From Escherichia phage KarlJaspers, in the sequence record MZ501090: a DNA stretch of 51,474 bases; one strand, written 5' to 3'. Each line of letters opens with the position of its first letter. Position 1 is the stretch's first letter. Below the pieces are notes generated by a model that had not been told where the DNA came from, ran no database searches, and saw only the letters and a list, made by a program, of their open reading frames with translations. Both the position numbers and the translations under genes were made by a program. Below, piece by piece: positions 6,325-49,320 of this stretch.

Positions 6325-6342
6325 CACAAAATTATGTTGCAC

Positions 6343-6361
6343 GTTTAACAAAAAATGCTAT
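6343..6361 (-). promoter_or_regulatory. conserved intergenic motif copy, reverse orientation
   Basis: GTTTAACAAAAAATGCTAT on + strand, 45 nt upstream of capsid start. Confidence 0.5.
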
Positions 6362-6407
6362 CATTGTGGCGTTACATACTAACAGCCTTTATATATGGAG
6401 GAAGAAA

Positions 6408-8176: not shown

Positions 8177-8544
8177 ACTATAACGAGATCGCAAGAATGG
8201 CAACCGAAGGAATTAACTTCTTTAGTGATGGCAACGGTGAGTTTAAGTGCATAACGCAGCGCGGAAGCGTTGAAATCATCGGAGGCGAAGAAGTAGAAAA
8301 GCCAGAGATTAGTGTAATGATTAAGGGTTTAATTAGATCCCCCAAAGTCAGAGAGGTTGACGGCGAGACAATACGAGTAACCGATAAGTTGGGAGTTTTT
8401 AACAATAAAGTTGAAATTAAGAACGGGTATCATATTGATGTTGATGGTGAATTATATGTTGTAGTTGAAGCAAGACCAATCAGACAAACCAATGTCACTG
8501 TTGCTTATCGGCCTATTTTGAGAAGGATTTCTGTACATGGCTAA
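8173..8544 (+). CDS. head-tail joining protein (putative)
   Basis: 123 aa, start overlaps previous stop (translational coupling). Confidence 0.35.
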
Positions 8545-10040: not shown

Positions 10041-10066
10041 AAGGGGCGTTGCGCCCCTTTTTTTGT
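10041..10066 (+). terminator. rho-independent terminator
   Basis: AAGGGGCG-ttg-CGCCCCTT hairpin followed by TTTTTTT. Confidence 0.85.
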
Positions 10067-10102
10067 TACTGTACAATCATGATACACGATTCATAATCAA
10101 TT

Positions 10103-10122
10103 CTTTTAACAAAAAGTGCTAT
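10103..10122 (-). promoter_or_regulatory. conserved intergenic motif copy, reverse orientation
   Basis: CTTTTAACAAAAAGTGCTAT on + strand directly before RBS of 10136 gene. Confidence 0.5.
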
Positions 10123-10135
10123 CAAGGAGAAAGAA

Positions 10136-14652: not shown

Positions 14653-15383
14653 TGATTAGTGCAAAAATAAAACTTGAAATAATGCAGCACGTAAAAGATG
14701 AATACCCGCGCGAGGCGTGCGGTGTTATCACTCAAAAGTCGCGGGTACAGAAATATCACCGCATCACCAACGTGCATGATGATCCTGAAAATCATTTTGA
14801 AATGGATGCGGTTGAATACGTTGAAGCGTGTGAAAGTGGAGAGCTTATTGCTGTTGTGCATAGCCATACTGGAGACGGGGCAAGCACAATTCCAAGCGCA
14901 CATGATACATGCATGTGTGATGAAATGGGCGTTTCATGGATTATTGTTTCATGGCCTGAAGGCGACATGAGAATCATTGAGCCTGAATCTCGTCCATTGA
15001 TTGGTCGTCCGTGGTCGCTTGGGGCATATGATTGCTGGGGTCTTATTATGGCATGGCACAAGCAACATGGCGTTATCCTGAATGATTTCAGGAAACCATA
15101 TGAATGGTGGAAGCCTGAGCACGGCGAAAATCTTTACCAGGAAAATTATCTGAAAGAGGGTTTTGTTGAAACAGGAGAGCCGCCAAAACCTGGTGATATG
15201 GTTATCTTCCAGCTTTCCGCGCCAGTGTGGAATCATGCAGGCATTTATCTTGGCAACAATCAGTTGCTTCATCATGCCTTTGGTAAGTTGTCGAGGGTTG
15301 ATTTGTATTCTGGATGGTATCAGGAACATGCAAAAATGGTTTGTAGACATAAGGATCTGAAATATGACTTTGAAGGTAATTAA
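14652..15383 (+). CDS. tail tip assembly protein (lambda K-like; JAB/MPN + NlpC/P60)
   Basis: EACGVI...HSHTGDGASTIPSAHD JAMM-like motif and DCWGL NlpC/P60-like Cys. Confidence 0.75.
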   Translation: MISAKIKLEIMQHVKDEYPREACGVITQKSRVQKYHRITNVHDDPENHFEMDAVEYVEACESGELIAVVHSHTGDGASTIPSAHDTCMCDEMGVSWIIVSWPEGDMRIIEPESRPLIGRPWSLGAYDCWGLIMAWHKQHGVILNDFRKPYEWWKPEHGENLYQENYLKEGFVETGEPPKPGDMVIFQLSAPVWNHAGIYLGNNQLLHHAFGKLSRVDLYSGWYQEHAKMVCRHKDLKYDFEGN

Positions 15384-20869: not shown

Positions 20870-20888
20870 GTTTAGCAAAAAGTGCCAT
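20870..20888 (-). promoter_or_regulatory. degenerate copy of conserved motif upstream of cor-like gene
   Basis: GTTTAGCAAAAAGTGCCAT; minus-strand TATAGT and AAGGAG RBS follow. Confidence 0.35.
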
Positions 20889-20959
20889 TCTGTTCTTTTT
20901 GTTCTCCTGCGTTCTCAAATCTGCGGAGGCTTAAATTTAGCTCAAAATGTGAGCAACAA

Positions 20960-24703: not shown

Positions 24704-25027
24704 TTACATTGATTTCATTTTACGCAATGCGCAGATACAAGCGGCAGCAAGATCGGTTAATTCTTTCTCAATGCCATGATGCGAGCCGTCTGCCTTTTCG
24801 GTCATTAGCTCTTTGTATTCCATTTCTACAATCGACATTAAGCCGCCTGGCTTGTCAATGTGCGCGTCCCAGGTTTTAGGATAGTGCTTAGTTCTTTCCA
24901 TAACACTTCCCATAACTGAATCATGTTTGCTATCTCGCTCATAATCATCATCATGATCATCACTCCCGATTGAAACTCGCGGCAAATGAATGCGCGGTAT
25001 TTTATAGCCAGCATAACGGATCTTCAT
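24704..25027 (-). CDS. MazG-like nucleotide pyrophosphohydrolase (tentative)
   Basis: EMEYKELMTE and EKELTDLAAA segments resemble paired EExxE/ExxxD helices of MazG-type NTP-PPases; start uncertain. Confidence 0.3.
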   Translation of the reverse strand: MKIRYAGYKIPRIHLPRVSIGSDDHDDDYERDSKHDSVMGSVMERTKHYPKTWDAHIDKPGGLMSIVEMEYKELMTEKADGSHHGIEKELTDLAAACICALRKMKSM

Positions 25028-25076
25028 TATCTCACCCTCTTGATGAAAAGCGCCCCGAAAGGCGCTTGATTTATTA

Positions 25077-29880: not shown

Positions 29881-29935
29881 ATACACCTCAAACAAAAAAG
29901 CCTGACAGATGATAACATCATGCCAGGCATTGTTT

Positions 29936-30409
29936 TTAGCAATTAGTGCTTTCAGGTTTATACAGGAATCCGCCAGGTTCATAATCTGACATTCTTACCA
30001 CTCGCAACATTTCACGCTTATCACATCTCTTTGTGAGCGGTTTGCCATTGGAATCAAATCGCAGGTCTGGACGACAGAATGATGCGCGATAGCCTTGACA
30101 TCCATATTTTTTGTAATCGTTATGCACCTTTTGAGCGCCAGCGGCTGAAATCATACCGCGAACGCGCCACTGATTTACAGTTTGCTGGCTAACGTTAAGA
30201 CGTTTTGCCATTGCTGACACGCTTCCGTAATACTCAATAAGGATGTCAAGTCGCGCTTTTAGTCCGGCGCGCACTTCATCTTTTAAAACATAGTATCCCG
30301 TAGGGCGCTTGCGCTTCTTCTTATCCTTTCCTCTTCGAGTTCCGTTATTGCCATTAATTGTGCGCTTGTCAATCTTGCCTGTTGATACTGCGATTCGTTG
30401 CTCTTTCAT
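29936..30409 (-). CDS. HTH DNA-binding protein (putative transcription regulator)
   Basis: 157 aa; basic N-terminus; helix-turn-helix-like SVSAMAKRLNVSQQTVNQW. Confidence 0.5.
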   Translation of the reverse strand: MKEQRIAVSTGKIDKRTINGNNGTRRGKDKKKRKRPTGYYVLKDEVRAGLKARLDILIEYYGSVSAMAKRLNVSQQTVNQWRVRGMISAAGAQKVHNDYKKYGCQGYRASFCRPDLRFDSNGKPLTKRCDKREMLRVVRMSDYEPGGFLYKPESTNC

Positions 30410-30422
30410 TATTCATTCTCCA

Positions 30423-30441
30423 ATAGCATTTTTTGTTAAAC
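30423..30441 (+). promoter_or_regulatory. conserved intergenic motif copy upstream of helicase
   Basis: ATAGCATTTTTTGTTAAAC, then TATTAT about 19 nt downstream. Confidence 0.5.
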
Positions 30442-30498
30442 GATGATTTAATGATTGTGTATTATACACGCCAAATGGCATTACTCAAAGGTTTTAGA

Positions 30499-32538: not shown

Positions 32539-32944
32539 TAAAGGCGATTATCTTGAGTTTTACGAAAGAGATCCGACGGATACGCTAAAAGAGGAATCAC
32601 ACCAGATTGGGGCGTTTCAATGGTTAACTTATGCTCATCCTGAATTGCTGGCATGGCATACGAAAAACGAGGGCGACAAGGGAATCGCCACAGCAATGAT
32701 GGATCAGCAAGCTGGACTTGTTAAGGGAGTAAGTGATTTTATCATCCTGATTGGATTAAAAGGCCGTTACCCGTTCGCGGCAATAGAGATGAAGCGCGTC
32801 AATAAGTCCGGCAAGGGGAAGGCTTCACCAGTCAGCAAGGAGCAAAAAGCCTTCTTGCGCCGCGTGCGTGAGCTTGGCGGATTCGCTGCCGTAACATACG
32901 GATATAAGCAATTCATGATCGCGGTAGAATACATGATGAAATAG
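32525..32944 (+). CDS. VRR-NUC domain nuclease
   Basis: GVSDFIILIGL...AIEMKR...KEQKAFL typical VRR-NUC signature; ATG 32525 with AAGGA RBS. Confidence 0.65.
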   Translation: MAMTDKGDYLEFYERDPTDTLKEESHQIGAFQWLTYAHPELLAWHTKNEGDKGIATAMMDQQAGLVKGVSDFIILIGLKGRYPFAAIEMKRVNKSGKGKASPVSKEQKAFLRRVRELGGFAAVTYGYKQFMIAVEYMMK

Positions 32945-32960
32945 CACTTTTTGTTAAAAC
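32941..32960 (+). promoter_or_regulatory. conserved intergenic motif copy
   Basis: ATAGCACTTTTTGTTAAAAC overlapping stop TAG; followed by GGCGC...GCGCC hairpin and ATAATA. Confidence 0.6.
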
Positions 32961-33724: not shown

Positions 33725-33985
33725 ATGCAGAAAGAAAGAAGAGTTGTACTTAATGAAGATGGCGAATTTCTTTTGTATCGCGCTATGGTATGCGATGCAC
33801 TTGATAAAAACCCTAACGTGAAAAAGATGATTGATTGCGATCCGTGGGAATTTTCAAGCGCATTAGATATGAGCTTTGAGGAGACAAAAAAACTCCCACT
33901 TGAAAAATGGCACGAACAAATCAGAAATGACATGCAAGAATTTGTCGATTCGTGGAATTTTCAGAACGGAATGATCCACCAATAG
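33725..33985 (+). CDS. hypothetical protein
   Basis: ATG 33725 after Dam stop; track ORF 33392-33985 upstream part overlaps Dam out of frame. Confidence 0.4.
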   Translation: MQKERRVVLNEDGEFLLYRAMVCDALDKNPNVKKMIDCDPWEFSSALDMSFEETKKLPLEKWHEQIRNDMQEFVDSWNFQNGMIHQ

Positions 33986-34001
33986 CACTTTTTGTTAAAA
34001 C
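33982..34001 (+). promoter_or_regulatory. conserved intergenic motif copy
   Basis: ATAGCACTTTTTGTTAAAAC overlapping stop TAG; GCCCGAC-cttgt-GTCGGGC hairpin then ATAATT. Confidence 0.6.
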
Positions 34002-36535: not shown

Positions 36536-36934
36536 ATGAGAAAGTTATCAGCAATCGCGATCGCTGTTATTTTGTCTGGATGTTCAAGCGTTACGCCACT
36601 GACCGGATTAATCGGTAGTAAGCCGGAAATCACAGCACAGGCAGGAGCGGAGAACGTAAAGCAGACCGTTGGCGTTACCGCAAAGCAGGACACCAGCACA
36701 AAACAGGAAACTACAATAAAGGAATCTGCGGTTGATAAGGTGGACACTTCCAGCAAGAAGGATTTCACTACGTCAACCATTCAGGCTAACACCATCAAGG
36801 CTGATAAAATCCAGGTTGTGCAGGGTGAGCAAAGTAAGTGGTACGATCCTATAATCTATTGCGCTGCAATTTTCAGTGGTCTTTTGTCAATGCTTTACTT
36901 TTCCTACCGCAAAGGCAACAAAAAGGAGGCTTAA
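36536..36934 (+). CDS. unimolecular spanin (lipoprotein with C-terminal TM)
   Basis: Lipobox ILSGCSS at N-terminus plus C-terminal TM helix; architecture as described for T1 gp11. Confidence 0.7.
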   Translation: MRKLSAIAIAVILSGCSSVTPLTGLIGSKPEITAQAGAENVKQTVGVTAKQDTSTKQETTIKESAVDKVDTSSKKDFTTSTIQANTIKADKIQVVQGEQSKWYDPIIYCAAIFSGLLSMLYFSYRKGNKKEA

Positions 36935-36950
36935 CGCCTCCTTTGTTTTA
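36924..36950. terminator. bidirectional terminator-like hairpin between convergent genes
   Basis: AGGAGGC-ttaac-GCCTCCT hairpin with T-rich flanks on both strands. Confidence 0.45.
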
Positions 36951-37184
36951 TAGTGAATCCATCAAATCTTGAAAGCTGTTTCCGCTATAATCATTCTCGA
37001 CAAGAATGTAAGCACCTTTCTTCTTTATATCCCATAGCATTTCATTGTATTCGTAACGATTTATTTCAAACGTGCTGCCATCTTCTCTTGTCGCAGTTCC
37101 TTTGTCGTTGAAAACATCAAAAGTTACATTGATGATTTTTGTCTCTTTCTTTGTTACTTTGATAGCCATTTTTAAAATCCTCAT
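36948..37184 (-). CDS. hypothetical protein
   Basis: 78 aa ORF downstream of motif copy 37227-37246. Confidence 0.4.
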   Translation of the reverse strand: MRILKMAIKVTKKETKIINVTFDVFNDKGTATREDGSTFEINRYEYNEMLWDIKKKGAYILVENDYSGNSFQDLMDSL

Positions 37185-37226
37185 ATTCGTTCCGATGAAA
37201 CAAATATACCCGATACGAGATCGGGA

Positions 37227-37246
37227 GTTTTAACAAAAAGTGCTAT
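37227..37246 (-). promoter_or_regulatory. conserved intergenic motif copy
   Basis: Minus strand ATAGCACTTTTTGTTAAAAC, then CCCGAT-ctcgt-ATCGGG hairpin and TATATT. Confidence 0.6.
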
Positions 37247-37437
37247 TCAATACGCTTTACAGTAACCAACAAAACGCCGTCCTCATCACACAAATTATGC
37301 TCTGATATATCAAACGCTCGCATGTCAGAATGAATGAGCGTTAACATTGCGTGCATGAAGTCGTCATGTGAGATTGAACTTACGGCGCAGAACTTCAATA
37401 TTTTGTCTATTAGCATTTGACGTAAACAATTCTTCAT
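37243..37437 (-). CDS. hypothetical protein (uncertain)
   Basis: 64 aa ORF overlapping 37364-37756 by 74 nt in another frame. Confidence 0.25.
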   Translation of the reverse strand: MKNCLRQMLIDKILKFCAVSSISHDDFMHAMLTLIHSDMRAFDISEHNLCDEDGVLLVTVKRIE

Positions 37438-37756
37438 CGCTCATTTCTCCGATCCTTAAAACATCCCTTACCCATTCGTTTTGCATACCTTCCAGGCTGT
37501 AAAGTTCAAACGAGAAAGGGCGATTTGCTGATCCTTTCTTACACCAGAACTTTCCACCAACTCCATCAAGATAACCAGCGGTCATCATTCTTGCGCAAAA
37601 CTCTTTTGAAACGGCGGTTGCAAACATTCTCGGCGTAAATCCTGCGGCCCTTGCGAGCCGCTCACATTCTCTATGCTGAAATATAAATTTTGCGATATGT
37701 TGACGTGTAAACCATTCGAATGACTCACACCAGCGATACAGATCCAGAAGAAACAT
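37364..37756 (-). CDS. hypothetical protein
   Basis: 130 aa ORF immediately downstream of DUF3987-like gene. Confidence 0.4.
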   Translation of the reverse strand: MFLLDLYRWCESFEWFTRQHIAKFIFQHRECERLARAAGFTPRMFATAVSKEFCARMMTAGYLDGVGGKFWCKKGSANRPFSFELYSLEGMQNEWVRDVLRIGEMSDEELFTSNANRQNIEVLRRKFNLT

Positions 37757-37758
37757 AA

Positions 37759-39342
37759 TTACCCCAGCAATGTTGGATTTACGAAAACAACGCCATTAAT
37801 CACACAAATATAATTTCTTTCCTCAAGCATCGGAAGCAGTTGCGTTTCCATGCGCTTCATTACGCCAGCCTGACCAACAAACGGCTTAACTTTTCGTGCA
37901 GCCTCATATATGGCGCGAACATTCAAGATTCCCTTATTAGCCTTTCCGTGTCGAGTGATGATCTCGATTAGTTTACCCATTTCAGCATCATCACCAGCGT
38001 AGCCAGAAGCGTTGGCGGCGCTAATGTATGTTTTGCTCAACTCGCTAAACATCAACAATGCTTCCTGAACGGTTTCAACCTCAATTTCTTTCGACTTCTG
38101 AGGGTATCCACCAGGATTAAACCAGTTGCGGATAGTGTGCAAAACTGAAGCAATCCTGATCACCTGCTTATCCATTTTGCCAAGCGCGCCGCGCAGCATT
38201 GTATGCGAATACTTTCCGCCATCGGCAAGGTGCGGTTCCATCTCCTGACGAGCCATGTTAAGAACTCGCATTGCTGATTTGCTGATCTTAAGCTGGATGT
38301 TTGATTCGCTCATTATGTTATGGATCAGCTTGAAATATTGGCTTTTCAGTTCCCCGTCAACAGGTTCATAAGTAGAATCACCGTTATCATCAACAAACTT
38401 TCTACGGCCTAAAAATGATTCCTCACGCACAAGCAAATAACGCTCACTTACACCGATACCGCGCGATCCTGCATCCATGATGGCATTGATTGTTTCATCC
38501 TGGGCAATTACCGCCATACAGCCAAGAGCTTTAAAACTCATATTGTTGTCAGCGTTTGCACGAGCTATAGAAACATGACCATGATCCCAGGCTTTTAATA
38601 CAAGTTCGCTGTTGGTTTTACGTTCGCTATTGGCATATGTCAGACCTAAAAGGCTGTTAATACTCGTTGCCTCGTCTGAAATTACAGCAAAGTTTCCCTG
38701 GCGGTTGTTGATTCTTGCAAGTCCTTCCGGCGTGGTGTCGGAGACAGGGAAAACAATGTCACACATCTTTTCCAGTTTTTCTTCCAGATCTTCTTTCTCC
38801 TGGTATAGCGATTCCATATCAGCGCCGGAACGCTCGCTTTTCATCTCTTTTGCAAGACCTGCCAACTTTGCCTGAATCTTTTTTCTTTCCTTCTTTCGCT
38901 GATCGTTAATTCTTTCCACTTCTGCAACCATTGGAGCAAGTGCCAGGCTGTTAACGGCAGACTTACCAGTTGAAGGAGGCTGGCTTGTAACAACGTACAG
39001 AGCGGTTGGTTGATCCGTTCCGTGATACTCAACCGTGAAGCGTCCAAGCATTGCAGCAGACACGCAGCCGATAAAATGCATATATGCCGATGATTCAGGG
39101 AATTGAACAGATCGAGCAATGTTGCGCGCCAACTTTCCAACAACATCAACATCATTGCCAAGAGAAATTATAGGGTAGCGATCGTTTCCGTTATTAACAT
39201 CATTAACCTCACCCCAAAAGCTGGACGATTGACGGTATCCGTTTGCCTGAATGGACACGCGCACCGGAGACAATCCTTGTGCATCAGCTAATTCGATAAT
39301 TTGTTTTGGTGTTAGTTTATTGGTTTCAAACGAAAAATTCAT
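37759..39342 (-). CDS. P-loop protein, DUF3987-like (putative replication/primase-associated)
   Basis: 527 aa; Walker A-like SQPPSTGKSA; family assignment from memory, unverified. Confidence 0.4.
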   Translation of the reverse strand: MNFSFETNKLTPKQIIELADAQGLSPVRVSIQANGYRQSSSFWGEVNDVNNGNDRYPIISLGNDVDVVGKLARNIARSVQFPESSAYMHFIGCVSAAMLGRFTVEYHGTDQPTALYVVTSQPPSTGKSAVNSLALAPMVAEVERINDQRKKERKKIQAKLAGLAKEMKSERSGADMESLYQEKEDLEEKLEKMCDIVFPVSDTTPEGLARINNRQGNFAVISDEATSINSLLGLTYANSERKTNSELVLKAWDHGHVSIARANADNNMSFKALGCMAVIAQDETINAIMDAGSRGIGVSERYLLVREESFLGRRKFVDDNGDSTYEPVDGELKSQYFKLIHNIMSESNIQLKISKSAMRVLNMARQEMEPHLADGGKYSHTMLRGALGKMDKQVIRIASVLHTIRNWFNPGGYPQKSKEIEVETVQEALLMFSELSKTYISAANASGYAGDDAEMGKLIEIITRHGKANKGILNVRAIYEAARKVKPFVGQAGVMKRMETQLLPMLEERNYICVINGVVFVNPTLLG

Positions 39343-39394
39343 TAATGATAACTCCTTTTTTGATGCGGCAATAATACCGCACCAATGCTACCCG

Positions 39395-39414
39395 CATTTA
39401 ACAAAAAATGCTAT
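39395..39414 (-). promoter_or_regulatory. conserved intergenic motif copy
   Basis: Minus strand ATAGCATTTTTTGTTAAATG, then palindrome TGCGGTATTATTGCCGCA. Confidence 0.55.
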
Positions 39415-39632
39415 TTGATCCGCTCTATGCTAACTAAGATTTTTTCTGGTTCCCTTGCGCTATAGCAATTCGCGGTTACGGAATCAGCAAAATCAAAATA
39501 AAGTGATTTGTGGTAAGAAAGACCAATCAGCCATCCAACCATCGTTTTCTTTATTGGCCTGACTATATCGCCAGGCTTGAAGGTTTTTGTTGCTGAATGA
39601 GTCACCTTATAGCGATATTCAGCCTTGATCAC
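39411..39632 (-). CDS. hypothetical protein
   Basis: 73 aa ORF. Confidence 0.4.
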   Translation of the reverse strand: MIKAEYRYKVTHSATKTFKPGDIVRPIKKTMVGWLIGLSYHKSLYFDFADSVTANCYSAREPEKILVSIERIK

Positions 39633-40015
39633 TTATACATAGCCTCAAACAAATGACATCCACCAGCGGAAAAGCCTACTTCTTCGCGGTATAGCGTCCA
39701 GCGGTCGCCAGCTTCATCAAACACATAACCAGCAACAGCGCCAAGCGCGCGGCCTTGCTCAATCTGGTAGCGCTTTCCTTCTTTGAAATGCTTTTTGCAC
39801 GGGATCTTGTGATCTACAAAGGTGCATTTAATTGTTTTTGTCTTGATATGACGATAGTCAGACTCAACAGCGTTTTGCCACTTGCTACCCTTTGTAATGC
39901 TCTTTACCTGGAATTGTTCCAATTCGATCACATCATCGCTACCAGCAATTTTTTCGTATACAGCTATATAACGACCGTTCATCAAAACATTGGTTTTATT
40001 GCAGATAACTTTCAT
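39629..40015 (-). CDS. hypothetical protein
   Basis: 128 aa ORF downstream of motif copy. Confidence 0.4.
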   Translation of the reverse strand: MKVICNKTNVLMNGRYIAVYEKIAGSDDVIELEQFQVKSITKGSKWQNAVESDYRHIKTKTIKCTFVDHKIPCKKHFKEGKRYQIEQGRALGAVAGYVFDEAGDRWTLYREEVGFSAGGCHLFEAMYK

Positions 40016-40070
40016 CGTTTATTTCTCCTTTCGTTCCGGTGAAGTGATTATGCCAGGCTTTTACACCTGG

Positions 40071-40090
40071 CTTTTAACAAAAAGTGCTAT
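40071..40090 (-). promoter_or_regulatory. conserved intergenic motif copy
   Basis: Minus strand ATAGCACTTTTTGTTAAAAG, then GCCAGG...CCTGGC hairpin and ATAATC. Confidence 0.6.
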
Positions 40091-40797
40091 TTTGCGTTTG
40101 CTTCAAAGACGGCGCGAGCAAAACCGCGCGGTGTGAGGGAGCGGATCATCTTTGTGCGAGATGATTTTCCGCCAGTTTTGGCCCAACCAGGATTATCCTT
40201 GTCGTCCTCTTTCGGAAGGATTGTTGCGCGCGGAGGAATAACAAAACCGTTTCCAGTCCAAAGACATGTTTTCTTAAAGTACCGATCCCGCGCCGGAATA
40301 ATATCAGGGAAGTCGGGATGCTTATCATCTTCCGGCAGATAGCCAGCATAATCGCACGGATGGAACGTATAATCAGGCTTGCGCCATAACGTTGACAGCT
40401 TGCCTACAGGATTCTCTATCATGTACGGAACACCGAAATAATCAGCGATATGCGACGCAATTTTGCAAGTGTCGGCGGCCTCATCCTGGAAAGATGGATT
40501 CTCAAGGCGTTTTTTGGCCCAATGGCGAGATCCGCTATTTGCAAGGTCAGTGCATGGAGGGAATGCCATAATAAAATCAGGCTTACCCCAATTTTCAAGT
40601 TTTGCGGTATATTTGAATAGCTCATCAATCCACACATTAACGTAAAAAATATTGTCGTGGATTATGCGCACTGATTGGTAGTCGCCATGATCTGCATCAT
40701 CGTAATTAAAGCAAATGCACTTATATCCAGCGTCGGCCCAATCTTTAACAGCCTTTCCAGATCCATCAAACAAAGAGAAAATTAAACCTTTATACAT
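40087..40797 (-). CDS. C5-cytosine DNA methyltransferase-like protein (compact)
   Basis: Motif I LFDGSG, motif IV FPPCTDLANSG, ENV-like MIENPVG, motif IX-like RSLTPRGFARA; only 236 aa. Confidence 0.5.
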   Translation of the reverse strand: MYKGLIFSLFDGSGKAVKDWADAGYKCICFNYDDADHGDYQSVRIIHDNIFYVNVWIDELFKYTAKLENWGKPDFIMAFPPCTDLANSGSRHWAKKRLENPSFQDEAADTCKIASHIADYFGVPYMIENPVGKLSTLWRKPDYTFHPCDYAGYLPEDDKHPDFPDIIPARDRYFKKTCLWTGNGFVIPPRATILPKEDDKDNPGWAKTGGKSSRTKMIRSLTPRGFARAVFEANAK

Positions 40798-40806
40798 TTC
40801 ATTACC

Positions 40807-41031
40807 TCAAAACGGAAAGCATCTAGGACAGTTCGGATCAAAATTGCAACCACAATCATTAACAATCATAGTTGGATCTGCAAATGCAGCGCCGCATTCA
40901 TGGTTCATATCCATTTCACCCAACGCATCATCAAGCGTCCTGATTTTATATGCGACTTCAAGCGCTGCCTCTTTATTCAGTCCGGCATCTTCTGCTTTTT
41001 GCAGTCGCTCAAAAAAACCGTCTTGACTCAT
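40807..41031 (-). CDS. hypothetical Cys-rich small protein
   Basis: 74 aa with HECG and CGCNFDPNCPRC cysteine cluster. Confidence 0.4.
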   Translation of the reverse strand: MSQDGFFERLQKAEDAGLNKEAALEVAYKIRTLDDALGEMDMNHECGAAFADPTMIVNDCGCNFDPNCPRCFPF

Positions 41032-41141
41032 TTAATAAACTCCTTAACAACAGCAAGAATAATCACAAGCCCAGCAGTAAAAACAAGCAAACCGACAAGG
41101 CCAATCATAACACCAAATAAAATATCAAGCGTCTTAATCAT
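41028..41141 (-). CDS. small single-TM membrane peptide (37 aa)
   Basis: MIKTLDILFGVMIGLVGLLVFTAGLVIILAVVKEFIK; stop TGA overlaps next ATG (ATGA); not in ORF track. Confidence 0.35.
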   Translation of the reverse strand: MIKTLDILFGVMIGLVGLLVFTAGLVIILAVVKEFIK

Positions 41142-41188
41142 TTATTCACCATTGATAAAACGGGAGTCGGAAACCTCCCATTGATTAA

Positions 41189-41449
41189 TCATACAGCCTT
41201 CCAGCTTTCAATAAACATGCTGTTTTCTTCCAGCAGTTTAATCAATTCTTCGCGCGTATATTTGCGGATTTTACTACCTGGATGTGAGCCAACAACAAAC
41301 ACACCTTTACCACTCGTGATTGTTAACTGGTTGATTCCGCAAGATTTATCCATCTTAATGGCGACGCGGTGATGTGCATCAACAGTGTGCATGATGTTAG
41401 TGACTTTAGCTTTCATTATGCGATCCTCATTGTACTTAGTGTAGGACAT
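41189..41449 (-). CDS. hypothetical protein
   Basis: 86 aa ORF. Confidence 0.4.
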   Translation of the reverse strand: MSYTKYNEDRIMKAKVTNIMHTVDAHHRVAIKMDKSCGINQLTITSGKGVFVVGSHPGSKIRKYTREELIKLLEENSMFIESWKAV

Positions 41450-41454
41450 TATAT

Positions 41455-41688
41455 TTACTTCAAATTCTCGATCTTGTTATTGCCAATTGAAGAATGAACG
41501 CAACGCTCTTGCGACTCCTTGTCGCCATGAACATCAATATAATAACCAGGTATGACAGTAAAAAACCAATTGCCACGCCAGAAGAAATAAAGGCCATGCT
41601 TGCTTCCTTTCGCGCATTTATTAGCATTTTTAGGTATTGGAAGTCCGTGTACTCTACGCAATTCTACATTCTTGTTAAAATTTGGCAT
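41455..41688 (-). CDS. hypothetical protein
   Basis: 77 aa ORF. Confidence 0.4.
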   Translation of the reverse strand: MPNFNKNVELRRVHGLPIPKNANKCAKGSKHGLYFFWRGNWFFTVIPGYYIDVHGDKESQERCVHSSIGNNKIENLK

Positions 41689-41882
41689 TACACAACCTCC
41701 ATAATAGTATTGAATCCACGCAGTTTGAAAGCATTTCCATGTTTAACAACGTTCCATGTCAGGCCGGAGTGATACGCAACCATATCCTCAAGATCAATGG
41801 TGATGATAGCGCCTTTCTTAAAGATTCCTTTCTCGTGAGTAGTGTCACGCTGTACAACTTTAACATCAACTTGATTTTCCAT
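41688..41882 (-). CDS. hypothetical protein
   Basis: 64 aa ORF downstream of motif copy. Confidence 0.4.
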   Translation of the reverse strand: MENQVDVKVVQRDTTHEKGIFKKGAIITIDLEDMVAYHSGLTWNVVKHGNAFKLRGFNTIMEVV

Positions 41883-41937
41883 TTTTAAATCCTCGTTCGT
41901 TGTCGATGCGCATAATATACCAATCAGAGGCGCATCG

Positions 41938-41957
41938 GTTTTAACAAAAAGTGCTAT
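41938..41957 (-). promoter_or_regulatory. conserved intergenic motif copy
   Basis: Minus strand ATAGCACTTTTTGTTAAAAC, then 8-bp CGATGCGC stem with TATATTAT in loop. Confidence 0.6.
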
Positions 41958-42263
41958 TTAGTCCAGGAGTTCGATTTCGCGCTCGCCAGTTAACGGATCT
42001 TTAATCCAGAATCCAAGCGCCTCACCGTAAATACCGCCATAGAATCCAAGCGCCGACAGTTCCTCACCTTTAACAAATACCAGATCACCGCTACGGCTTA
42101 CGTGAGACACGTTAACGATAACCGGAAATGTGCGGTTTTTAAATGCAGGCCGCAGGGCGTAACACCCGTTATTGAGAAAACGTGCTTTGCGCTTAACTGG
42201 AATAGGTGCATTGATTCGCGCCATCTTTATTTCTCCTTCATTGTTGATCGTGTTTAACGGCAA
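41958..42263 (-). CDS. hypothetical protein
   Basis: 101 aa ORF. Confidence 0.4.
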   Translation of the reverse strand: MPLNTINNEGEIKMARINAPIPVKRKARFLNNGCYALRPAFKNRTFPVIVNVSHVSRSGDLVFVKGEELSALGFYGGIYGEALGFWIKDPLTGEREIELLD

Positions 42264-42483
42264 TCAGAACATCACAGGACTCGTTAATAAATTTTGCCAT
42301 GCGCTTATCATCACCAACAGGGATTAGCGCATTACACTCGCGCTTGCTACTGAATACCGTCACTTTATGAAACGATGCGAACGGCATCGACGGGAACTCG
42401 ACTGTTTGCGTCAAGATCCGCAATCCCATCTTTTTGGCCCTTACCTGGGCCTCGGCAAGTTCAAAATCCACTTCATTAATCAT
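42238..42483 (-). CDS. hypothetical protein
   Basis: 81 aa ORF. Confidence 0.4.
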   Translation of the reverse strand: MINEVDFELAEAQVRAKKMGLRILTQTVEFPSMPFASFHKVTVFSSKRECNALIPVGDDKRMAKFINESCDVLIAVKHDQQ

Positions 42484-42752
42484 TTCTTGATCTCCTCAGC
42501 AATAAATTTCAGGACTTTGCGCAAAAACACTTCATTATTGATGGTCGCTGGCAATTCCTCTTTCACTTCTTGCGGCAGGTAAACGTTGCCATGCCAGGTC
42601 AAGCAATCGTAGTTGATACGATAAGAGCAAAGCCACTCGCAATCGTTATCCGCTTCCCAAATGCAGAGTTGCAGAACATCGCCGAAGTCTTCAACAGTCA
42701 GGTCCAGACCGTGACGCTTTGCAAAGTTGAAAGTGGTTTTGCTGATGTTCAT
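42480..42752 (-). CDS. hypothetical protein
   Basis: 90 aa ORF, first gene of leftward early operon. Confidence 0.4.
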   Translation of the reverse strand: MNISKTTFNFAKRHGLDLTVEDFGDVLQLCIWEADNDCEWLCSYRINYDCLTWHGNVYLPQEVKEELPATINNEVFLRKVLKFIAEEIKK

Positions 42753-42815
42753 TTGCTTTCTCCTGATGGGTATCTCGTTTCGATGGGATAACTATACCAG
42801 GTTATCCCGATCGTG

Positions 42816-42834
42816 CTTTAACAAAAAGTGCTAT
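42816..42834 (-). promoter_or_regulatory. conserved intergenic motif copy
   Basis: Minus strand ATAGCACTTTTTGTTAAAG, then GGGATAA...TTATCCC hairpin with TATAGT. Confidence 0.6.
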
Positions 42835-43099
42835 TTGCTGACTGGTCATTATTCCACATATTCCATTAATCAGGAATAACAGGAATAATTCATTCGCGAT
42901 CACCTGGATTGTGAGACTTTGAGTTTGATCAATTTTAATCAGTTGATTAACTTTTTGTGTGGAGGGGATAGAGAAATGCGGCCCTCTTGCATCCTTTCCG
43001 GCAATCCTGGCGCGCACATCTGTTATTTCTGTTCCCCGTGTTATCTCAAATAAGCCTCCGCACTTTTAGATAACAGAATCGGCGTTCATCAACAAAAAG

Positions 43100-43300
43100 A
43101 ACAAAATAAAATTTATATATATACCCATAAAATCAATAAGTTAGTTATATATGTATTTATATTTGTTATTTACTGTTGAGCTTGTTCTATTGGTATATGG
43201 TGGGGTGGTATTGTTTGTGGTGATATGTATGTGTGATTGTATATTTTTTAATCAATGGTGATGTGTGGTGATTTTTGTATGTATATATATGGGTATGGGG
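43100..43300. repeat. AT/GT-rich non-coding island, copy 2 (homologous to 20960-21130)
   Basis: Core AAATCAATAAGTTAGT at 43130-43145 plus GT-rich tracts (GGTGATTTTTGTATG). Confidence 0.7.
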
Positions 43301-43424: not shown

Positions 43425-43455
43425 TTGACATGCAGGAAGGGCAAGGCAATAATGC
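43425..43455 (+). promoter_or_regulatory. candidate promoter for rightward early operon
   Basis: TTGACA at 43425-43430; -10 assignment ambiguous (TAATGC at 19 nt). Confidence 0.3.
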
Positions 43456-43960: not shown

Positions 43961-44220
43961 TGAATAAGGCATTAATTGGAGTTTTGATTGCAATTGCTAC
44001 CCTGACCGGATGCGAAAAGGCATCTGAATCAACGGTAGTCGTAGGCGTGGAGTCAGATTTTAAAGTCGGTCGCCTGTTTACTGTTGATGGATGCACTGCG
44101 TACCGATTCTATGACAACGGTCGGGCAATCTATTACACCAATTGTAAGGGCGCAACGGATAGCACATACCGCAGCGGCAAAAACGTAATGCACCAACAAG
44201 TCACAACAGATATGAAATAG
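43960..44220 (+). CDS. early lipoprotein (possible exclusion protein)
   Basis: Signal peptide with lipobox LTGC; 86 aa. Confidence 0.5.
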   Translation: MNKALIGVLIAIATLTGCEKASESTVVVGVESDFKVGRLFTVDGCTAYRFYDNGRAIYYTNCKGATDSTYRSGKNVMHQQVTTDMK

Positions 44221-44236
44221 CACTTTTTGTTAAAAC
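44217..44236 (+). promoter_or_regulatory. conserved intergenic motif copy
   Basis: ATAGCACTTTTTGTTAAAAC overlapping stop; GCCAGG-tgcaaat-CCTGGC hairpin then ATAATA. Confidence 0.6.
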
Positions 44237-44493: not shown

Positions 44494-44679
44494 ATGAAAA
44501 CGAAATTAGTCCATAAATCAGAAATCAAGATCGGCGATACTGTGATTCACAACGGAGAGCTTAGAACGGTTGGCAAAGAGTCAATAAGCCGCGATGAATT
44601 TATGGGGATCTTGTTGTTCGGTGACTCTTATCGGCTGGGTTATAAAATGGTTGAGCTTGTGGAAGAGGTAAAATTCTAA
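44494..44679 (+). CDS. hypothetical protein
   Basis: 61 aa ORF. Confidence 0.4.
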   Translation: MKTKLVHKSEIKIGDTVIHNGELRTVGKESISRDEFMGILLFGDSYRLGYKMVELVEEVKF

Positions 44680-44699
44680 ATAGCACTTTTTGTTAAAAC
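44680..44699 (+). promoter_or_regulatory. conserved intergenic motif copy
   Basis: ATAGCACTTTTTGTTAAAAC directly after stop TAA; ATAATA downstream. Confidence 0.55.
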
Positions 44700-44777
44700 T
44701 CAAAAACGATAACCAGGCATAATACACACATAGGGCGGCACGGCGTCGCCCAGTTAAACCAATCAGGAGAAAGCACT

Positions 44778-45668
44778 ATGTTAAAACTTGCTAACATTAA
44801 ATTCCCGATCACCTTCGAATCTCGCGGCGTTGGTCACTTCATGTTTTCCGACAAAAATACATGCACTAAGTTTAACGAATACGGAAAGCCTGATGTTTCA
44901 ACAATGGAGATTGAGCACCTCATTGATGCGCACAATAAGCACTACAACTCGCTTAAAGACTATGGCTACGCAATGCCAGGCTATACATGTTTTCACTACA
45001 AGCCATATAAGGGCCAGGTGTTACCAGTGCGCTCACCGGAACGCGCAGAGATTCCGATGGTCGAGATGAAAACCTGCGACTATAAAAAATTGTGGTGCTT
45101 AAGAGTGGATAACATCAAGTATCCGATCACGTTCTACACGGCTGGTAATTCAACGATTCGCTTCACATCGCGCGAAAATGGCGTTTATAGCGATGGTACG
45201 AAATCAGAGTTGAAAGTTGATTTCTTTGTCAATGGTCACAACAAATTCAATCCGCACAACGAAGAGGATAAGGTTTACTACGTGGAAGACATTACAAAAC
45301 ACTTGTTTGGAGATGCGCCAATTGGCGGCGGGAAGACGTCAATTCAGCAAATCATTGGCGAGGAGATCCACAAGGCAGCCGTTAAAATGAAAGCACCTGT
45401 AGGCTGGCGTATTGACAAGAGCGCCTTTGCATATCAAGAAATCGTAACGCAGGGCAAAATTGAAGATATGCCGCTTGGCGCTTCAATCATCGGCATCAGA
45501 GACAATAACGGCGACTGGAATGATGTTTCATTCCCTGTCAAGCGGATCGAGTTGCACGAAGACCTGATTTGCATCCTGGCGCATCATGGCAGCTATAAGG
45601 ACAAGCCATTCGCCGCCGAGCTTAACATCAAGCGCGGAACTATGGTTAAGTGGAAAGTCAAAGTGTAA
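44778..45668 (+). CDS. hypothetical protein with internal duplication
   Basis: 296 aa; NIKFPITFESRG (N-terminus) repeated as NIKYPITFYTAGN about 100 residues later. Confidence 0.45.
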   Translation: MLKLANIKFPITFESRGVGHFMFSDKNTCTKFNEYGKPDVSTMEIEHLIDAHNKHYNSLKDYGYAMPGYTCFHYKPYKGQVLPVRSPERAEIPMVEMKTCDYKKLWCLRVDNIKYPITFYTAGNSTIRFTSRENGVYSDGTKSELKVDFFVNGHNKFNPHNEEDKVYYVEDITKHLFGDAPIGGGKTSIQQIIGEEIHKAAVKMKAPVGWRIDKSAFAYQEIVTQGKIEDMPLGASIIGIRDNNGDWNDVSFPVKRIELHEDLICILAHHGSYKDKPFAAELNIKRGTMVKWKVKV

Positions 45669-45688
45669 ATAGCACGAATTGTTAAAAC
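45669..45688 (+). promoter_or_regulatory. conserved intergenic motif copy (GAATT variant)
   Basis: ATAGCACGAATTGTTAAAAC; GGCC...TATAAT...GGCC downstream. Confidence 0.55.
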
Positions 45689-46499: not shown

Positions 46500-46657
46500 C
46501 CTGGATTCTATTTGTGATTATCACAAGCTACAATTCAGCCGCCATTGAGTCTCGCGAGTTCCACGGTGAATCAAGATGTCAGGCCGCGAGAGAGCAAGTA
46601 ATTTTGCATATGTCAGATAACGATAAAGAAGTTGAAGTATTCTGCATTCGTAAATAG
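46496..46657 (+). CDS. hypothetical small protein (53 aa)
   Basis: ORF below track cutoff; hydrophobic N-terminus WILFVIITSY; stop TAG inside motif copy. Confidence 0.3.
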   Translation: MTWILFVIITSYNSAAIESREFHGESRCQAAREQVILHMSDNDKEVEVFCIRK

Positions 46658-46673
46658 CACTTTTTGCAAAAAC
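46654..46673 (+). promoter_or_regulatory. conserved intergenic motif copy (variant)
   Basis: ATAGCACTTTTTGCAAAAAC; GGGCTT...AAGCCC hairpin enclosing TATAGT downstream. Confidence 0.55.
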
Positions 46674-47368: not shown

Positions 47369-47959
47369 ATGAAGCGAGACATTATCATCCTTAACGGACC
47401 GCCAGGAGTTGGCAAGGATACGCTTGCGGCATACTTAACTGGCCATCGTTACGCAGCCGTTAAAGCGTCGTTTAAGCAACCGATGTTTGATATTGCATTC
47501 TCCATGCTTGGCGTTTACCTATATGACGAGTTCATTGATCTGTATAACGACCGCGAGCAGAAAGAAAAGCCTCAAGCAATCTTGCAAGGCAATTCGCCTC
47601 GCAAGTTCATGATCTGGATTAGCGAAGAAGTCATGAAGCCAGCTTTTGGCGAGCAATATTTCGGAAATCGCATGGTTGAGCAAGTACACGAGATGTACAG
47701 AGATTTGGCTGTTGTAATTAGTGATGGCGGATTCCCTGAAGAAATCAAGCCGCTCGTTAAGGCAGGCCATGAAGTTCACATTTGCCGACTGCATCGCGAA
47801 GGATTCACGTTTGATGGCGATTCGCGAAACTATATTGACCTGAGCGGATACCATCACCGAGTCAAGCATTACGACTTCACAATGATTGATGGCGAGCCAG
47901 AAAAGACTGTTGACGAGATCATCAAAACGGTGCAGTGGAAACACACAAAGATTGAATAG
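47369..47959 (+). CDS. P-loop nucleotide kinase (dNMP kinase-like, putative)
   Basis: Walker A GPPGVGKDT near N-terminus; ATG 47369 preferred over 47354 (GGAG 9 nt upstream). Confidence 0.5.
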   Translation: MKRDIIILNGPPGVGKDTLAAYLTGHRYAAVKASFKQPMFDIAFSMLGVYLYDEFIDLYNDREQKEKPQAILQGNSPRKFMIWISEEVMKPAFGEQYFGNRMVEQVHEMYRDLAVVISDGGFPEEIKPLVKAGHEVHICRLHREGFTFDGDSRNYIDLSGYHHRVKHYDFTMIDGEPEKTVDEIIKTVQWKHTKIE

Positions 47960-47975
47960 CACGAATTGCTAAAAG
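47956..47975 (+). promoter_or_regulatory. conserved intergenic motif copy (GAATT variant)
   Basis: ATAGCACGAATTGCTAAAAG overlapping stop TAG; TATAAT downstream. Confidence 0.5.
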
Positions 47976-49013: not shown

Positions 49014-49301
49014 ATGGCTAAAAGCAATCGTAAAATGTTGATTAACGCATTCGAAAAGGAAGCGCTTGAGCGTGGTTGGAATGACTCATTTCACACAGCA
49101 AACTGTATCCGCCGTTACGGATTCAAGGATTGCCGATCCTGGGCGCGTCAAATGGCTTCATGGTATGATCTTGATGCGCATTACCTTGATATGGATTGCG
49201 CCCTGGTTGAAATGATTGAGCAGGCCGCACTAGAGGATCGACCATTAACGCAATCTGATTTTGACGATTTTGTGCGCGATGAAATCTATTACATGAGCTA
49301 A
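49014..49301 (+). CDS. hypothetical protein
   Basis: ATG 49014 with AAAGGAGGAAA RBS; 95 aa. Confidence 0.45.
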   Translation: MAKSNRKMLINAFEKEALERGWNDSFHTANCIRRYGFKDCRSWARQMASWYDLDAHYLDMDCALVEMIEQAALEDRPLTQSDFDDFVRDEIYYMS

Positions 49302-49320
49302 TAGCACTTTTTGTTAAAAC
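49301..49320 (+). promoter_or_regulatory. conserved intergenic motif copy
   Basis: ATAGCACTTTTTGTTAAAAC overlapping stop TAA. Confidence 0.55.

Follow-up and report, generated by a model that had tools for sequence, protein, structure and literature searches.

Does the short conserved motif that recurs along the leftward early block of Escherichia phage KarlJaspers (sequence record MZ501090, about 37.2 to 42.8 kb) provide nearly every small gene with a promoter of its own, and does it divide the block into cassettes that can be gained and lost as wholes? This was the original prediction, made from the sequence alone, and we followed it up across the window, by which we mean the whole stretch of 51,474 nucleotides (nt), numbered from its first base. 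A 6-kb query covering the block matches 177 phage records, headed by Escherichia phage phiE31-2 (97%) and Shigella phage pSf-1 (96%), both members of Hanrivervirus (Tempevirinae, Drexlerviridae) and 96-97% identical to the window. The genomes of these two relatives measure 51-52 kb, so the window is essentially an entire T1-like genome. According to the 2024 re-annotation of phage TLS, T1-like phages possess no RNA polymerase or sigma factor of their own and are thought to depend on the host enzyme (PMC11447400).

In gene orientation the motif reads AATAGCACnnnTTGnTAAAA, also given as AATAGCACTTTTTGTTAAAA; its plus-strand form is TTTAACAAAAAGTGCTATT. Its repetition on the minus strand of the block was correctly recognised from the start: window-wide, we found 16 copies with up to three mismatches where shuffled sequences lead one to expect 0.14, plus a 17th with four mismatches and an 18th identified through a degenerate pattern (at 29953, minus strand), giving 18 in total. 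Five of these copies, and not six as first counted, belong to the block, with 5' ends at 42835, 41958, 40091, 39415 and 37247; a search of the block allowing five mismatches added noise and no sixth copy. The motif is also present 23 times in T1, 20 times in Rtp and 20 times in TLS, each against fewer than one copy expected, which covers three subfamilies, and its sequence is essentially unchanged in the most divergent relatives reached, Vibrio phage Vc1 and Citrobacter phage HCF1. In an alignment of 80 sites drawn from four genomes (the window, T1, Rtp and TLS), G5, C6, A7 and A18 are invariant and G14 is kept in 79, while 21 sites belong to a variant with a GAA centre. Sixteen of the 18 copies in the window are co-oriented with the gene that follows; the copies at 6362 and 10123 lie antisense within the late operon, and have antisense counterparts in T1 and TLS.

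The motif frequently supplies the stop codon of the gene in front of it, either through the TAG within AATAGC or through a TAA that overlaps its first A. This holds for 12 of the 17 copies examined genome-wide (upstream open reading frames, ORFs, of at least 53 amino acids, aa), including four in the block, where TAG ends the upstream ORF at 37243, 39411 and 40087, and the TAA form occurs at 41958. The overlap with stop codons that had been proposed for every motif of the block is thus correct and general, except for the copy at 42835, which sits within an upstream ORF that reads through it.

Judged by its sequence, the motif is the 21-base repeat already published for T1-like phages, of which this genome is one more carrier. 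The TLS re-annotation describes a 21-nt intergenic direct repeat with consensus aaATAGCACnnnTTGnTAAAA, best conserved at ATAGCAC and TAAAA, notes similar repeats in T1, Rtp and Rogue1, and leaves the function open while proposing a stoperator, an enhancer site or an UP element (PMC11447400). The repeat described there and the one found here share the consensus, the T, G and A centre variants, an orientation that follows transcription and a spacing of ~76 nt from the start codon, and they are about equally numerous (18 copies here; 21 in TLS, of which 18 are intergenic). The passages of that report that we consulted make no mention of a -10 element at fixed distance, a dyad near -42, a context-dependent stem-loop, a copy within the capsid promoter, or cassette junctions, which we describe below.

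Each copy very likely forms the upstream portion of a promoter of the sigma-70 type with a -10 element, often extended, and no -35, with start sites that are predicted from the alignment. We found the hexamer most similar to TATAAT exactly 22 nt past the A of TTGnTA at 60 of the 80 sites, and 21-23 nt past it at 69, whereas random placement over the 15 spacings scanned would put about 7% at each. Columns that had played no part in selecting the sites, read at the 70 sites anchored on the -10 hexamer, show G at -14 in 55 cases, TG at -15/-14 in 30, C at -1 in 45 and A at +1 in 58; among the block promoters, TG at -15/-14 occurs only at 41958 and 42835. The position of a -35 hexamer reads AAAACn, and no such hexamer is present. 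The start region is conserved as C-n-C-A(+1)-T, followed by an A-rich leader (ATCGAAACGA), a Shine-Dalgarno sequence and the ATG, the distance from motif to ATG being mostly 73-77 nt (~75). The whole module measures about 80 bp, with the 21-bp motif at about -51 to -32 and a 22-nt spacer that is free in sequence. Many copies, from different subfamilies, also agree in the first 10-12 transcribed bases; such conservation exceeds what a promoter needs, and these bases may therefore form a leader element for translation or stability.

A generic sigma-70 scan (TTGACA-16/18-TATAAT) recovered none of the five block promoters and returned 9 sites where shuffled sequences gave 17.4, so these are not ordinary promoters. 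The AAAACn at -35 explains why the scan misses them, and also why only three canonical intergenic promoters are reported for TLS (PMC11447400). Other readings of the motif as a known promoter element were tried and rejected. TTGnTA cannot serve as a -35, being 22 bp away from the -10, which is too far. The sigma-54 consensus (TGGCAC-N5-TTGC) contains similar words (xAGCAC...TTGC), but the gap in the motif is N3 and not N5, and the presence of a sigma-70 -10 at fixed distance after the motif further opposes this reading. An UP element (A/T-rich, -59 to -38) is disfavoured by invariant positions that are G or C; the partial match falls at -43 to -33 and is limited to part of one variant, the GAA-centre variant having no T-tract. 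Some copies that lack a usable -10 are conserved as well, at the capsid promoter and beside late-gene ribosome sites. Motif-like copies with an AAA centre and no -10 occur in T1 (8362-8379 and 25021-25038) and TLS (24908-24925), right on the ribosome-binding regions of terS and of a tail J-like gene.

Within the block, five composite promoters, all on the minus strand like the genes they precede, define units of three, six, two, three and one ORFs in the order of transcription. The first promoter (42753..42835; motif 42835..42816) has a stem-loop (42813..42781) across its -10 TATAGT (42796..42791) and a predicted +1 at 42784, the A of CCCATC, followed by a leader and Shine-Dalgarno sequence up to the ATG at 42752. 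Behind it, unit 1 (41958..42752) consists of ORFs of 90 aa (42480..42752, PHROG 6147), 81 aa (42238..42483) and 88 aa (41958..42224, PHROG 9595), the last ending in the TAA that overlaps the next motif. Promoter 2 (41883..41958; motif 41958..41939) likewise has a stem-loop (41937..41904) across the -10 (TATATT, 41919..41914; predicted +1 ~41907). It heads unit 2 (40087..41882), whose six ORFs begin with a 64-aa gene (41688..41882) that matches the Pfam family PF25180, Gp54 antiviral trigger (E = 3e-37), so that at least one cassette gene is a known target of bacterial defence. There follow a 77-aa DUF7274 gene (41455..41688), an 86-aa gene (41189..41449, PHROG 4344), a terminator-like hairpin at ~41150-41180, a hydrophobic 37-aa ORF (41028..41141), a 74-aa ORF (40807..41031, PHROG 9323) with a Cys-rich C-terminus, and a 236-aa gene (40087..40797) that is Dcm-like methyltransferase by the annotation of relatives.

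In promoter 3 (40016..40091; motif 40091..40072), the stem-loop (40071..40052) lies within the spacer, the -10 is CATAAT (40052..40047), the predicted +1 is ~40040, and the methyltransferase gene ends in the TAG at 40089..40087. Unit 3 (39411..40015) comprises a 128-aa gene (39629..40015, PHROG 2684), annotated as MORN-like in one relative, and a 73-aa gene (39411..39632). Promoter 4 (39343..39415) carries the motif variant AATAGCAT (39415..39396), a stem-loop (39396..39360) across the -10 TATTAT (39376..39371), and a predicted +1 at ~39364; unit 4 (37243..39342) encodes a 527-aa DUF3987-type helicase (37759..39342), a 130-aa protein that is YdbL-like in relatives (37364..37756), and a 64-aa protein (37243..37437) whose ORF overlaps the preceding one and ends on the TAG of the next motif. 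In promoter 5 (37170..37247; motif 37247..37228), the stem-loop (37225..37209) is followed by TATATTTGTTT and is terminator-like; the -10 is TATATT (37208..37203) and the predicted +1 ~37196. Its unit 5 (36948..37169) is a single 73-aa ORF, and a bidirectional intrinsic terminator (36922..36944) closes both the leftward block and the rightward lysis genes.

This layout does not bear out the view that each motif copy precedes one or two small ORFs and that nearly every small gene has its own, which overstates the case because the units are multi-gene and include the 527-aa helicase and the 236-aa methyltransferase beside small ORFs. The two ORFs that had been singled out, the 74-aa one, with five Cys among the final 29 residues, and the hydrophobic one of 37 aa, do exist, but without a motif of their own, as the fifth and fourth genes of the six-gene unit. 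The stretch 43090-43300, where the leftward and rightward early arms diverge, is very AT-rich with short irregular repeats; a similar AT-rich stretch is found near the left end of T1. Possible roles for it are those of an origin, a region related to packaging, or the promoter region of the ORF that reads through the motif at 42835.

We compared the block with six close Hanrivervirus relatives, and these do vary by whole promoter-plus-gene cassettes, as had been anticipated. The segment 36948-37240, that is promoter 5 with its 73-aa gene, is exactly absent in JakobBernoulli and Fulano1, where the first bases of the motif are fused to the stop codon of the cassette gene (junction 37241). Damhaus retains promoter 5 with a different gene behind it, and the match resumes at 37186 in the leader. 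JakobBernoulli, pSf-1 and herni have an additional promoter and two genes at 41958, and the window's promoter 2 combines the upstream flank and motif of one of the two flanking copies with the spacer, hairpin and leader of the other; as a chimera of these copies it points to a crossover inside the shared motif. In Fulano1, the 73-aa gene of unit 3 is swapped for an HNH gene, one junction lying exactly at the motif edge (39414). Overall, ~4-5 of ~13 distinct junctions fall within modules that make up 7.6% of the block, which suggests an enrichment of junctions at the modules, although six genomes are a small sample. In keeping with this patchy distribution, the helicase core is found in 131 records (63 at ≥90% identity) and the 73-aa gene of unit 5 in 19, while the two-gene cassette missing from the window occurs in 165, among them 89 from Klebsiella phages.

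Two sets of events follow the motif only in part or not at all. Four relatives carry a different gene and an additional motif promoter in place of 41442-41685, the DUF7274 gene (damhaus has both), and only one end of this replacement adjoins a promoter; three insertions of free-standing HNH endonuclease genes lie away from the motif altogether. We consider it likely from the sequence comparison that the modules act as crossover points and cassette boundaries. Of the original picture of modular promoter-gene cassettes, the promoter anatomy is strongly supported and variation by whole cassettes is observed, but the idea of one gene per motif has to be given up for units of one to six.

The sequence that follows the motif tends to form a GC-rich stem-loop: the 40 nt after it fold with a mean z of -2.7, against -0.3 for random 40-mers of the genome (p ~1e-17). 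This depends on context. At the ten copies without a co-directional gene upstream (the promoters of the helicase and of the lipoprotein unit, each in four genomes, and, in two genomes, the antisense copy behind the tail gene) the mean z is -0.49, against -3.41 at the other 74 (p = 4e-5). The classes used in this test were based on annotation, automatic classes by ORF length being too noisy because real genes of 26-49 aa occur. Folding favours the sense over the antisense strand at 51 sites, and the antisense strand at 18. Some stems lie within the spacer and end at -13, others cross the -10 and end at +1 to +5, and their arms vary from copy to copy as well as between orthologous promoters of different phages, where they also shift in position, those of the helicase promoter reading TGCGG/CCGCA, GACGG/CCGTC, GTTGCCG/CGGCAAC and GATGCCG/CGGCATC. 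Since the stem-loop tracks the end of an upstream gene, it would not be part of the promoter mechanism, and we rejected both a cruciform and the display of the -10 in a loop on the ground that the structure is missing at copies without an upstream gene. Classical intrinsic terminators were rejected as a general description too, a T-run following only the stem-loop at 37225..37209 and that of the 29953 copy.

We therefore regard it as rather probable that the stem-loop serves the upstream transcript by attenuating, terminating or stabilising read-through RNA, a reading that draws on folding and gene context. Several observations count against it: most stem-loops have no U-tract; control 40-mers show a bias of 237 to 158, so that the preference for the sense strand is partly general to coding strands; the context classes were partly set after the pattern had been seen in the window, though seven of the ten cases come from other genomes; and the copy at 44679 has an upstream gene, yet no stem-loop in the usual place. 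At this last locus, a GC-rich hairpin (GGGCGGCACGGCGTCGCCC) lies in a longer leader past the predicted start (44679-44778, plus strand).

What could recognise the motif in place of a -35? Its core is a dyad, TAGCA-N5-TG(C/T)TA, in which positions 3-7 are complementary to positions 13-17. If transcription starts at the conserved A located 7 nt past the -10, the centre of this dyad would fall at -42. CRP and FNR, as class II activators, bind near -41.5, and lambda cI bound at OR2 contacts sigma and activates PRM. The dyad has its weak points, with 5 bp per half and a T15 that breaks one pair in about half of the copies, and its flanks lack symmetry, conservation being limited there to C8, T12 and the A-run; the site is therefore a pseudo-palindrome, like the operators of Cro and cI.

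A candidate binder is encoded at 29936..30409 on the minus strand. This 157-aa Cro-like helix-turn-helix (HTH) protein is the counterpart of T1 gp23, Rtp52 and TLS gp58, annotated in these phages as a small "transcriptional regulator" whose gene adjoins that of the primase and is divergent from that of a large helicase. It belongs to PHROG 2856 'transcriptional regulator' (E = 3e-78) and matches the Pfam P22_Cro and YdaS HTH families just under their curated cut-offs; a profile of 33 homologues retrieves Xfaso-1 Cro and the engineered hybrid XPH1 at E ~1e-3 and P22 Cro at 0.012. Its AlphaFold model (mean predicted local distance difference test score, pLDDT, 85) has fold matches at template modelling (TM) scores of 0.67-0.74, the best being Xfaso-1 Cro (0.74), with the N15 Cro-operator complex (~0.7) and controller C-proteins of restriction-modification systems among the others. 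The HTH spans residues 55-90 and a C-terminal segment is conserved. The best-conserved part of the protein is not the HTH but a basic N-terminal arm, residues 14-37 (DKRTxNGNNGTRRGKDKKxRK), with D14, R16, G20, N21, N22, R26, D29 and R33 invariant, which is modelled as disordered. The homologues found lie on contigs of at most ~78 kb, the largest mostly of ~50 kb, so that the protein, as the motif does, looks like a hallmark of the family.

The arrangement of the regulator gene is consistent with a link to the motif. It is among the few genes with a canonical sigma-70 promoter (TTGAGT-16-TATAAT, 30461..30488, minus strand), conserved in T1 (36511-) and TLS (35909-), which faces the motif promoter of the 701-aa helicase unit in such a way that the two -10 hexamers overlap (30461-30466 and 30460-30465), an arrangement kept in T1 and TLS; polymerase could therefore occupy only one of them at a time. 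The motif copy of the helicase unit (30422..30441, plus strand), which has no stem-loop, is separated by 13 nt from the start codon of the regulator gene, whose predicted transcript would contain it at about +14 to +33. With a canonical promoter and this motif geometry, the regulator could be made before the motif promoters fire and could limit its own synthesis.

A further site of interest is the promoter of the major capsid gene (TTGCAC-16-TATCAT, 6338..6365, plus strand; ATG 6409), whose 16-bp spacer consists of a reverse-oriented motif copy (6343-6362), so that any binder of the motif would sit in the core of a late promoter. The same layout is seen in T1 (15062-15095, TTGACG-16-TATTAT) and in TLS (~15020-15050, TTGAAC-16-TATATT), and, read leftward in the orientation of the motif itself, the copies at the capsid promoter are followed by a poor -10.

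We consider it quite possible, if short of probable, that this Cro-like regulator of the family binds the motif. The proposed link draws only on geometry and on a shared distribution in the family, which tells against it, and a test by co-variation is powerless because the motif is invariant across the family, from Vibrio phage Vc1 and Citrobacter phage HCF1 to two metagenomic contigs. A contig of Shigella phage 2019SD1 (IMG/VR) with the regulator and no motif was discarded, its record being flagged as an unverified assembly and scrambled, with many short pieces rearranged relative to the window and no intact motif copy. The DUF7174 gene, first of the rightward early arm (ORF end 43960), has its own near-consensus promoter (TTGACA-17-AATAAT, 43425-43453, plus strand); it is likely an immediate-early gene, and its product is another candidate for the factor that would act at these motif promoters.

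The overall explanation that we favour, tentatively, is that of a module that would be at once a compact promoter, the site of a Cro-like activator, an attenuator and a crossover point. Host sigma-70 RNA polymerase would use the -10 of the motif promoters, and the Cro-like protein, bound as a dimer on the dyad, would replace the -35 contact as a class II activator in a position likened to that of lambda cI at OR2 for PRM. The regulator would itself be made from its ordinary sigma-70 promoter, with a promoter geometry that would allow self-limitation, and through the site in the core of the capsid promoter it could hold the late genes back. In read-through RNA, the stem-loop in the spacer or across -10/+1 would act as an attenuator, a terminator or a 3' stabiliser and insulate the units from each other. 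Being repeated about 18 times, the module would offer expression signals for any gene placed behind it as well as safe crossover points, and hence allow the gain, loss and swapping of cassettes.

The least secure element is the sign of regulation, and activation as such we hold to be doubtful. Against it, G at -14 or an extended -10 may suffice without an activator, and an accumulating regulator would repress the capsid gene, which is needed late, unless an extra assumption such as titration by replicating DNA is made; moreover, in the literature searched on T1-like phages we found neither mapping of transcript 5' or 3' ends nor binding data. The same promoters and the same Cro-like binder could work with the opposite sign, the motif being an operator at which the accumulating regulator would switch off early transcription from promoters that are strong by themselves (extended -10, A/T tracts), in the manner of lambda or P22 Cro at OL/OR or of an L5-type stoperator. 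The protein is Cro-like in both sequence and fold, the counts of G at -14 and of TG suggest that a -35 is dispensable, and a site that overlaps the -35 region, fills the capsid spacer and lies just downstream of the regulator start shows classical repressor geometries; stoperators are also among the proposals of the TLS authors (PMC11447400). On the other hand, an accumulating repressor too would silence the capsid promoter late, the strict 22-nt phasing with a centre near -42 fits a contact between activator and polymerase where a repressor needs no phasing, and stoperators, unlike the motif sites, are not tied to a -10. On balance we regard this repressor variant as unlikely.

The difficulty at the capsid promoter would be met if one family-specific Cro-like protein with ~20 identical operators per genome activated the early and middle promoters without a -35 from -42, repressed in the capsid spacer and limited its own synthesis, and if replication then made the operators outnumber the regulator, turning the early genes off and the capsid promoter on. 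The modules of such a titration timer would also hold RNA attenuators in their spacers and crossover points for cassette exchange. As a complete scheme, this is rather unlikely.

The favoured activator could also be dispensed with if the alpha C-terminal domains or sigma region 4 of the polymerase read the motif directly, as an UP-like or -35-like element of very strong promoters. The 3' half of the commonest variant (TTTTTGTTAAA) fits the core of the UP consensus, WTTTTNNNAAA, and TTGnTA is similar to TTGACA; phages of Escherichia, Klebsiella, Vibrio and Citrobacter, whose host polymerases are conserved, carry the identical element; and UP elements are an option listed in the TLS paper (PMC11447400). 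However, what is invariant is G5, C6, A7 and G14 and not the A/T tracts, which the GAA-centre variant lacks on the T side; the match lies ~8 bp nearer to the -10 than an UP element, TTGnTA is beyond the reach of sigma region 4, and the conserved copies without a usable -10 point to a role as a binding site apart from polymerase. We judge polymerase alone to be an improbable reader of the motif.

Recognition of the dyad by a host protein would avoid a chicken-and-egg problem, nearly all early units, the first-transcribed ones included, carrying the motif and a host factor being present beforehand, but this is very improbable: to our knowledge no E. coli regulator has a TAGCA-N5-TGCTA site, the canonical promoters of the regulator and DUF7174 genes could supply a phage factor first, and conservation of the motif extends to phages of hosts as remote as Vibrio. 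Least credible of all is a role at the RNA level in read-through transcripts (processing, stability or translation termination) with an incidental -10-like sequence, which would account for the stop-codon overlap and the sense-strand bias of the following stem-loop but not for copies without an upstream gene that keep the motif and not the stem-loop, for the fixed -10 phasing, G at -14 and CA(+1), which are promoter features at the DNA level, or for the reversed motif at the capsid promoter; an Rfam search of the whole window gave no matches.

Returning to the copies outside the block, the 18th (GAAAGCACTAATTGCTAAAA, 29934..29953, minus strand) heads the primase gene, and its stem-loop (29928..29900) together with the following TTTTTTGTTT makes up an intrinsic terminator behind the regulator gene; in T1, the corresponding element is annotated as a terminator. 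An antisense copy after the major tail gene (10104..10123, minus strand) has a good -10 (TATCAT, 10084..10079), and its predicted start (~10072) would run directly into a bidirectional terminator (10042-10066), giving an RNA of ~40 nt; a matching antisense arrangement lies past the major tail gene of T1 (18770-18850). This copy may produce a small RNA or cause transcriptional interference with the late operon. The copy of the lipoprotein (cor-like) unit (20870..20889, minus strand) has no stem-loop. On the plus strand, copies at 32940..32959 and 33981..34000 have a stem-loop in the spacer, and the rightward early arm carries its first copy at 44216..44235, downstream of the DUF7174 gene, followed by those at 44679..44698 (no stem-loop predicted despite the upstream gene), 45668..45687 (GAA-centre variant), 46653..46672, 47955..47974 (GAA-centre variant) and 49300..49319. 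Canonical sigma-70 promoters precede the genes of the recE-like exonuclease, the Erf-like annealing protein and SSB (21259, 22392 and 23387, plus strand) and are conserved across subfamilies (T1 30319 and 31457; TLS 29110 and 31243). With the recombination genes on canonical and not on motif promoters, the genome has two promoter classes.

The closest known parallel in gene organisation is given by the PeSL (promoter-early stem-loop) cassettes of T4-type phages, in which repeated promoter and stem-loop modules flank genes of unknown function and recombination between them leads to insertion, deletion and replacement (PMC2839356, PMC4122927). Both systems have small repeated modules of early promoter and stem-loop between small genes that are mostly without known function, both have junctions of indels or replacements in the modules (here at 37241, 37186 and 39414, and inside the motif at 41958), and the stem-loop has been interpreted in each case as terminating or attenuating transcription from upstream, a role suggested here by sequence. 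The sequences and the phage families are unrelated, however. PeSL promoters have consensus -35 and -10 elements and an AT-rich upstream region, where the present ones have AAAACn and the 21-bp dyad motif, and the PeSL stem-loop is separate, beside the promoter, while here it is nested inside it, in the spacer or across -10/+1. Mini-circles arising from recombination between neighbouring modules are a further trait of PeSL. On this comparison, the module organises genes as PeSL cassettes do but is not a member of the PeSL family.

As a type of promoter, by analogy, it seems to most resemble class II activator-dependent promoters or T4 middle promoters. It shares with class II promoters (CRP and FNR at -41.5, cI at OR2/PRM) and with the boxes of C-proteins a dyad near -42 and a weak or absent -35, as well as a candidate binder whose gene adjoins one of the sites, C-proteins being among the fold matches of the regulator model; it differs in that ~18-23 promoters per genome share one site, and in that binding and activation are proposed from geometry. 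T4 middle promoters (MotA box, AsiA-remodelled sigma-70) are likewise a phage-specific class in which the sigma-70 -10 is kept and a phage box replaces the -35, but the MotA box, which is no dyad, has its centre at -30, and we identified no AsiA-like or MotA-like protein here. L5 stoperators, the analogue proposed by the TLS authors, also occur as many short oriented intergenic copies along transcription units; in contrast, they lack symmetry, act by blocking elongation and show no phasing to a -10, and L5 is temperate with an immunity repressor whereas T1-like phages are virulent.

T1 is a classic coliphage, yet the timing of transcription in T1 and its relatives is still obscure, and the function of the repeat is presented as an open question in the 2024 TLS re-annotation (PMC11447400). 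The element itself is in the literature; what our analysis brings is a testable architecture, with predicted start sites and a predicted role for the stem-loop, and a candidate regulator. It also extends promoter-flanked cassettes that can be shuffled, first described in T4-type myoviruses, to an unrelated family of siphoviruses. Drexlerviridae phages are widely isolated for therapy, and such cassettes help to explain how small accessory genes move among them, including at least one that encodes a known trigger of bacterial defence.

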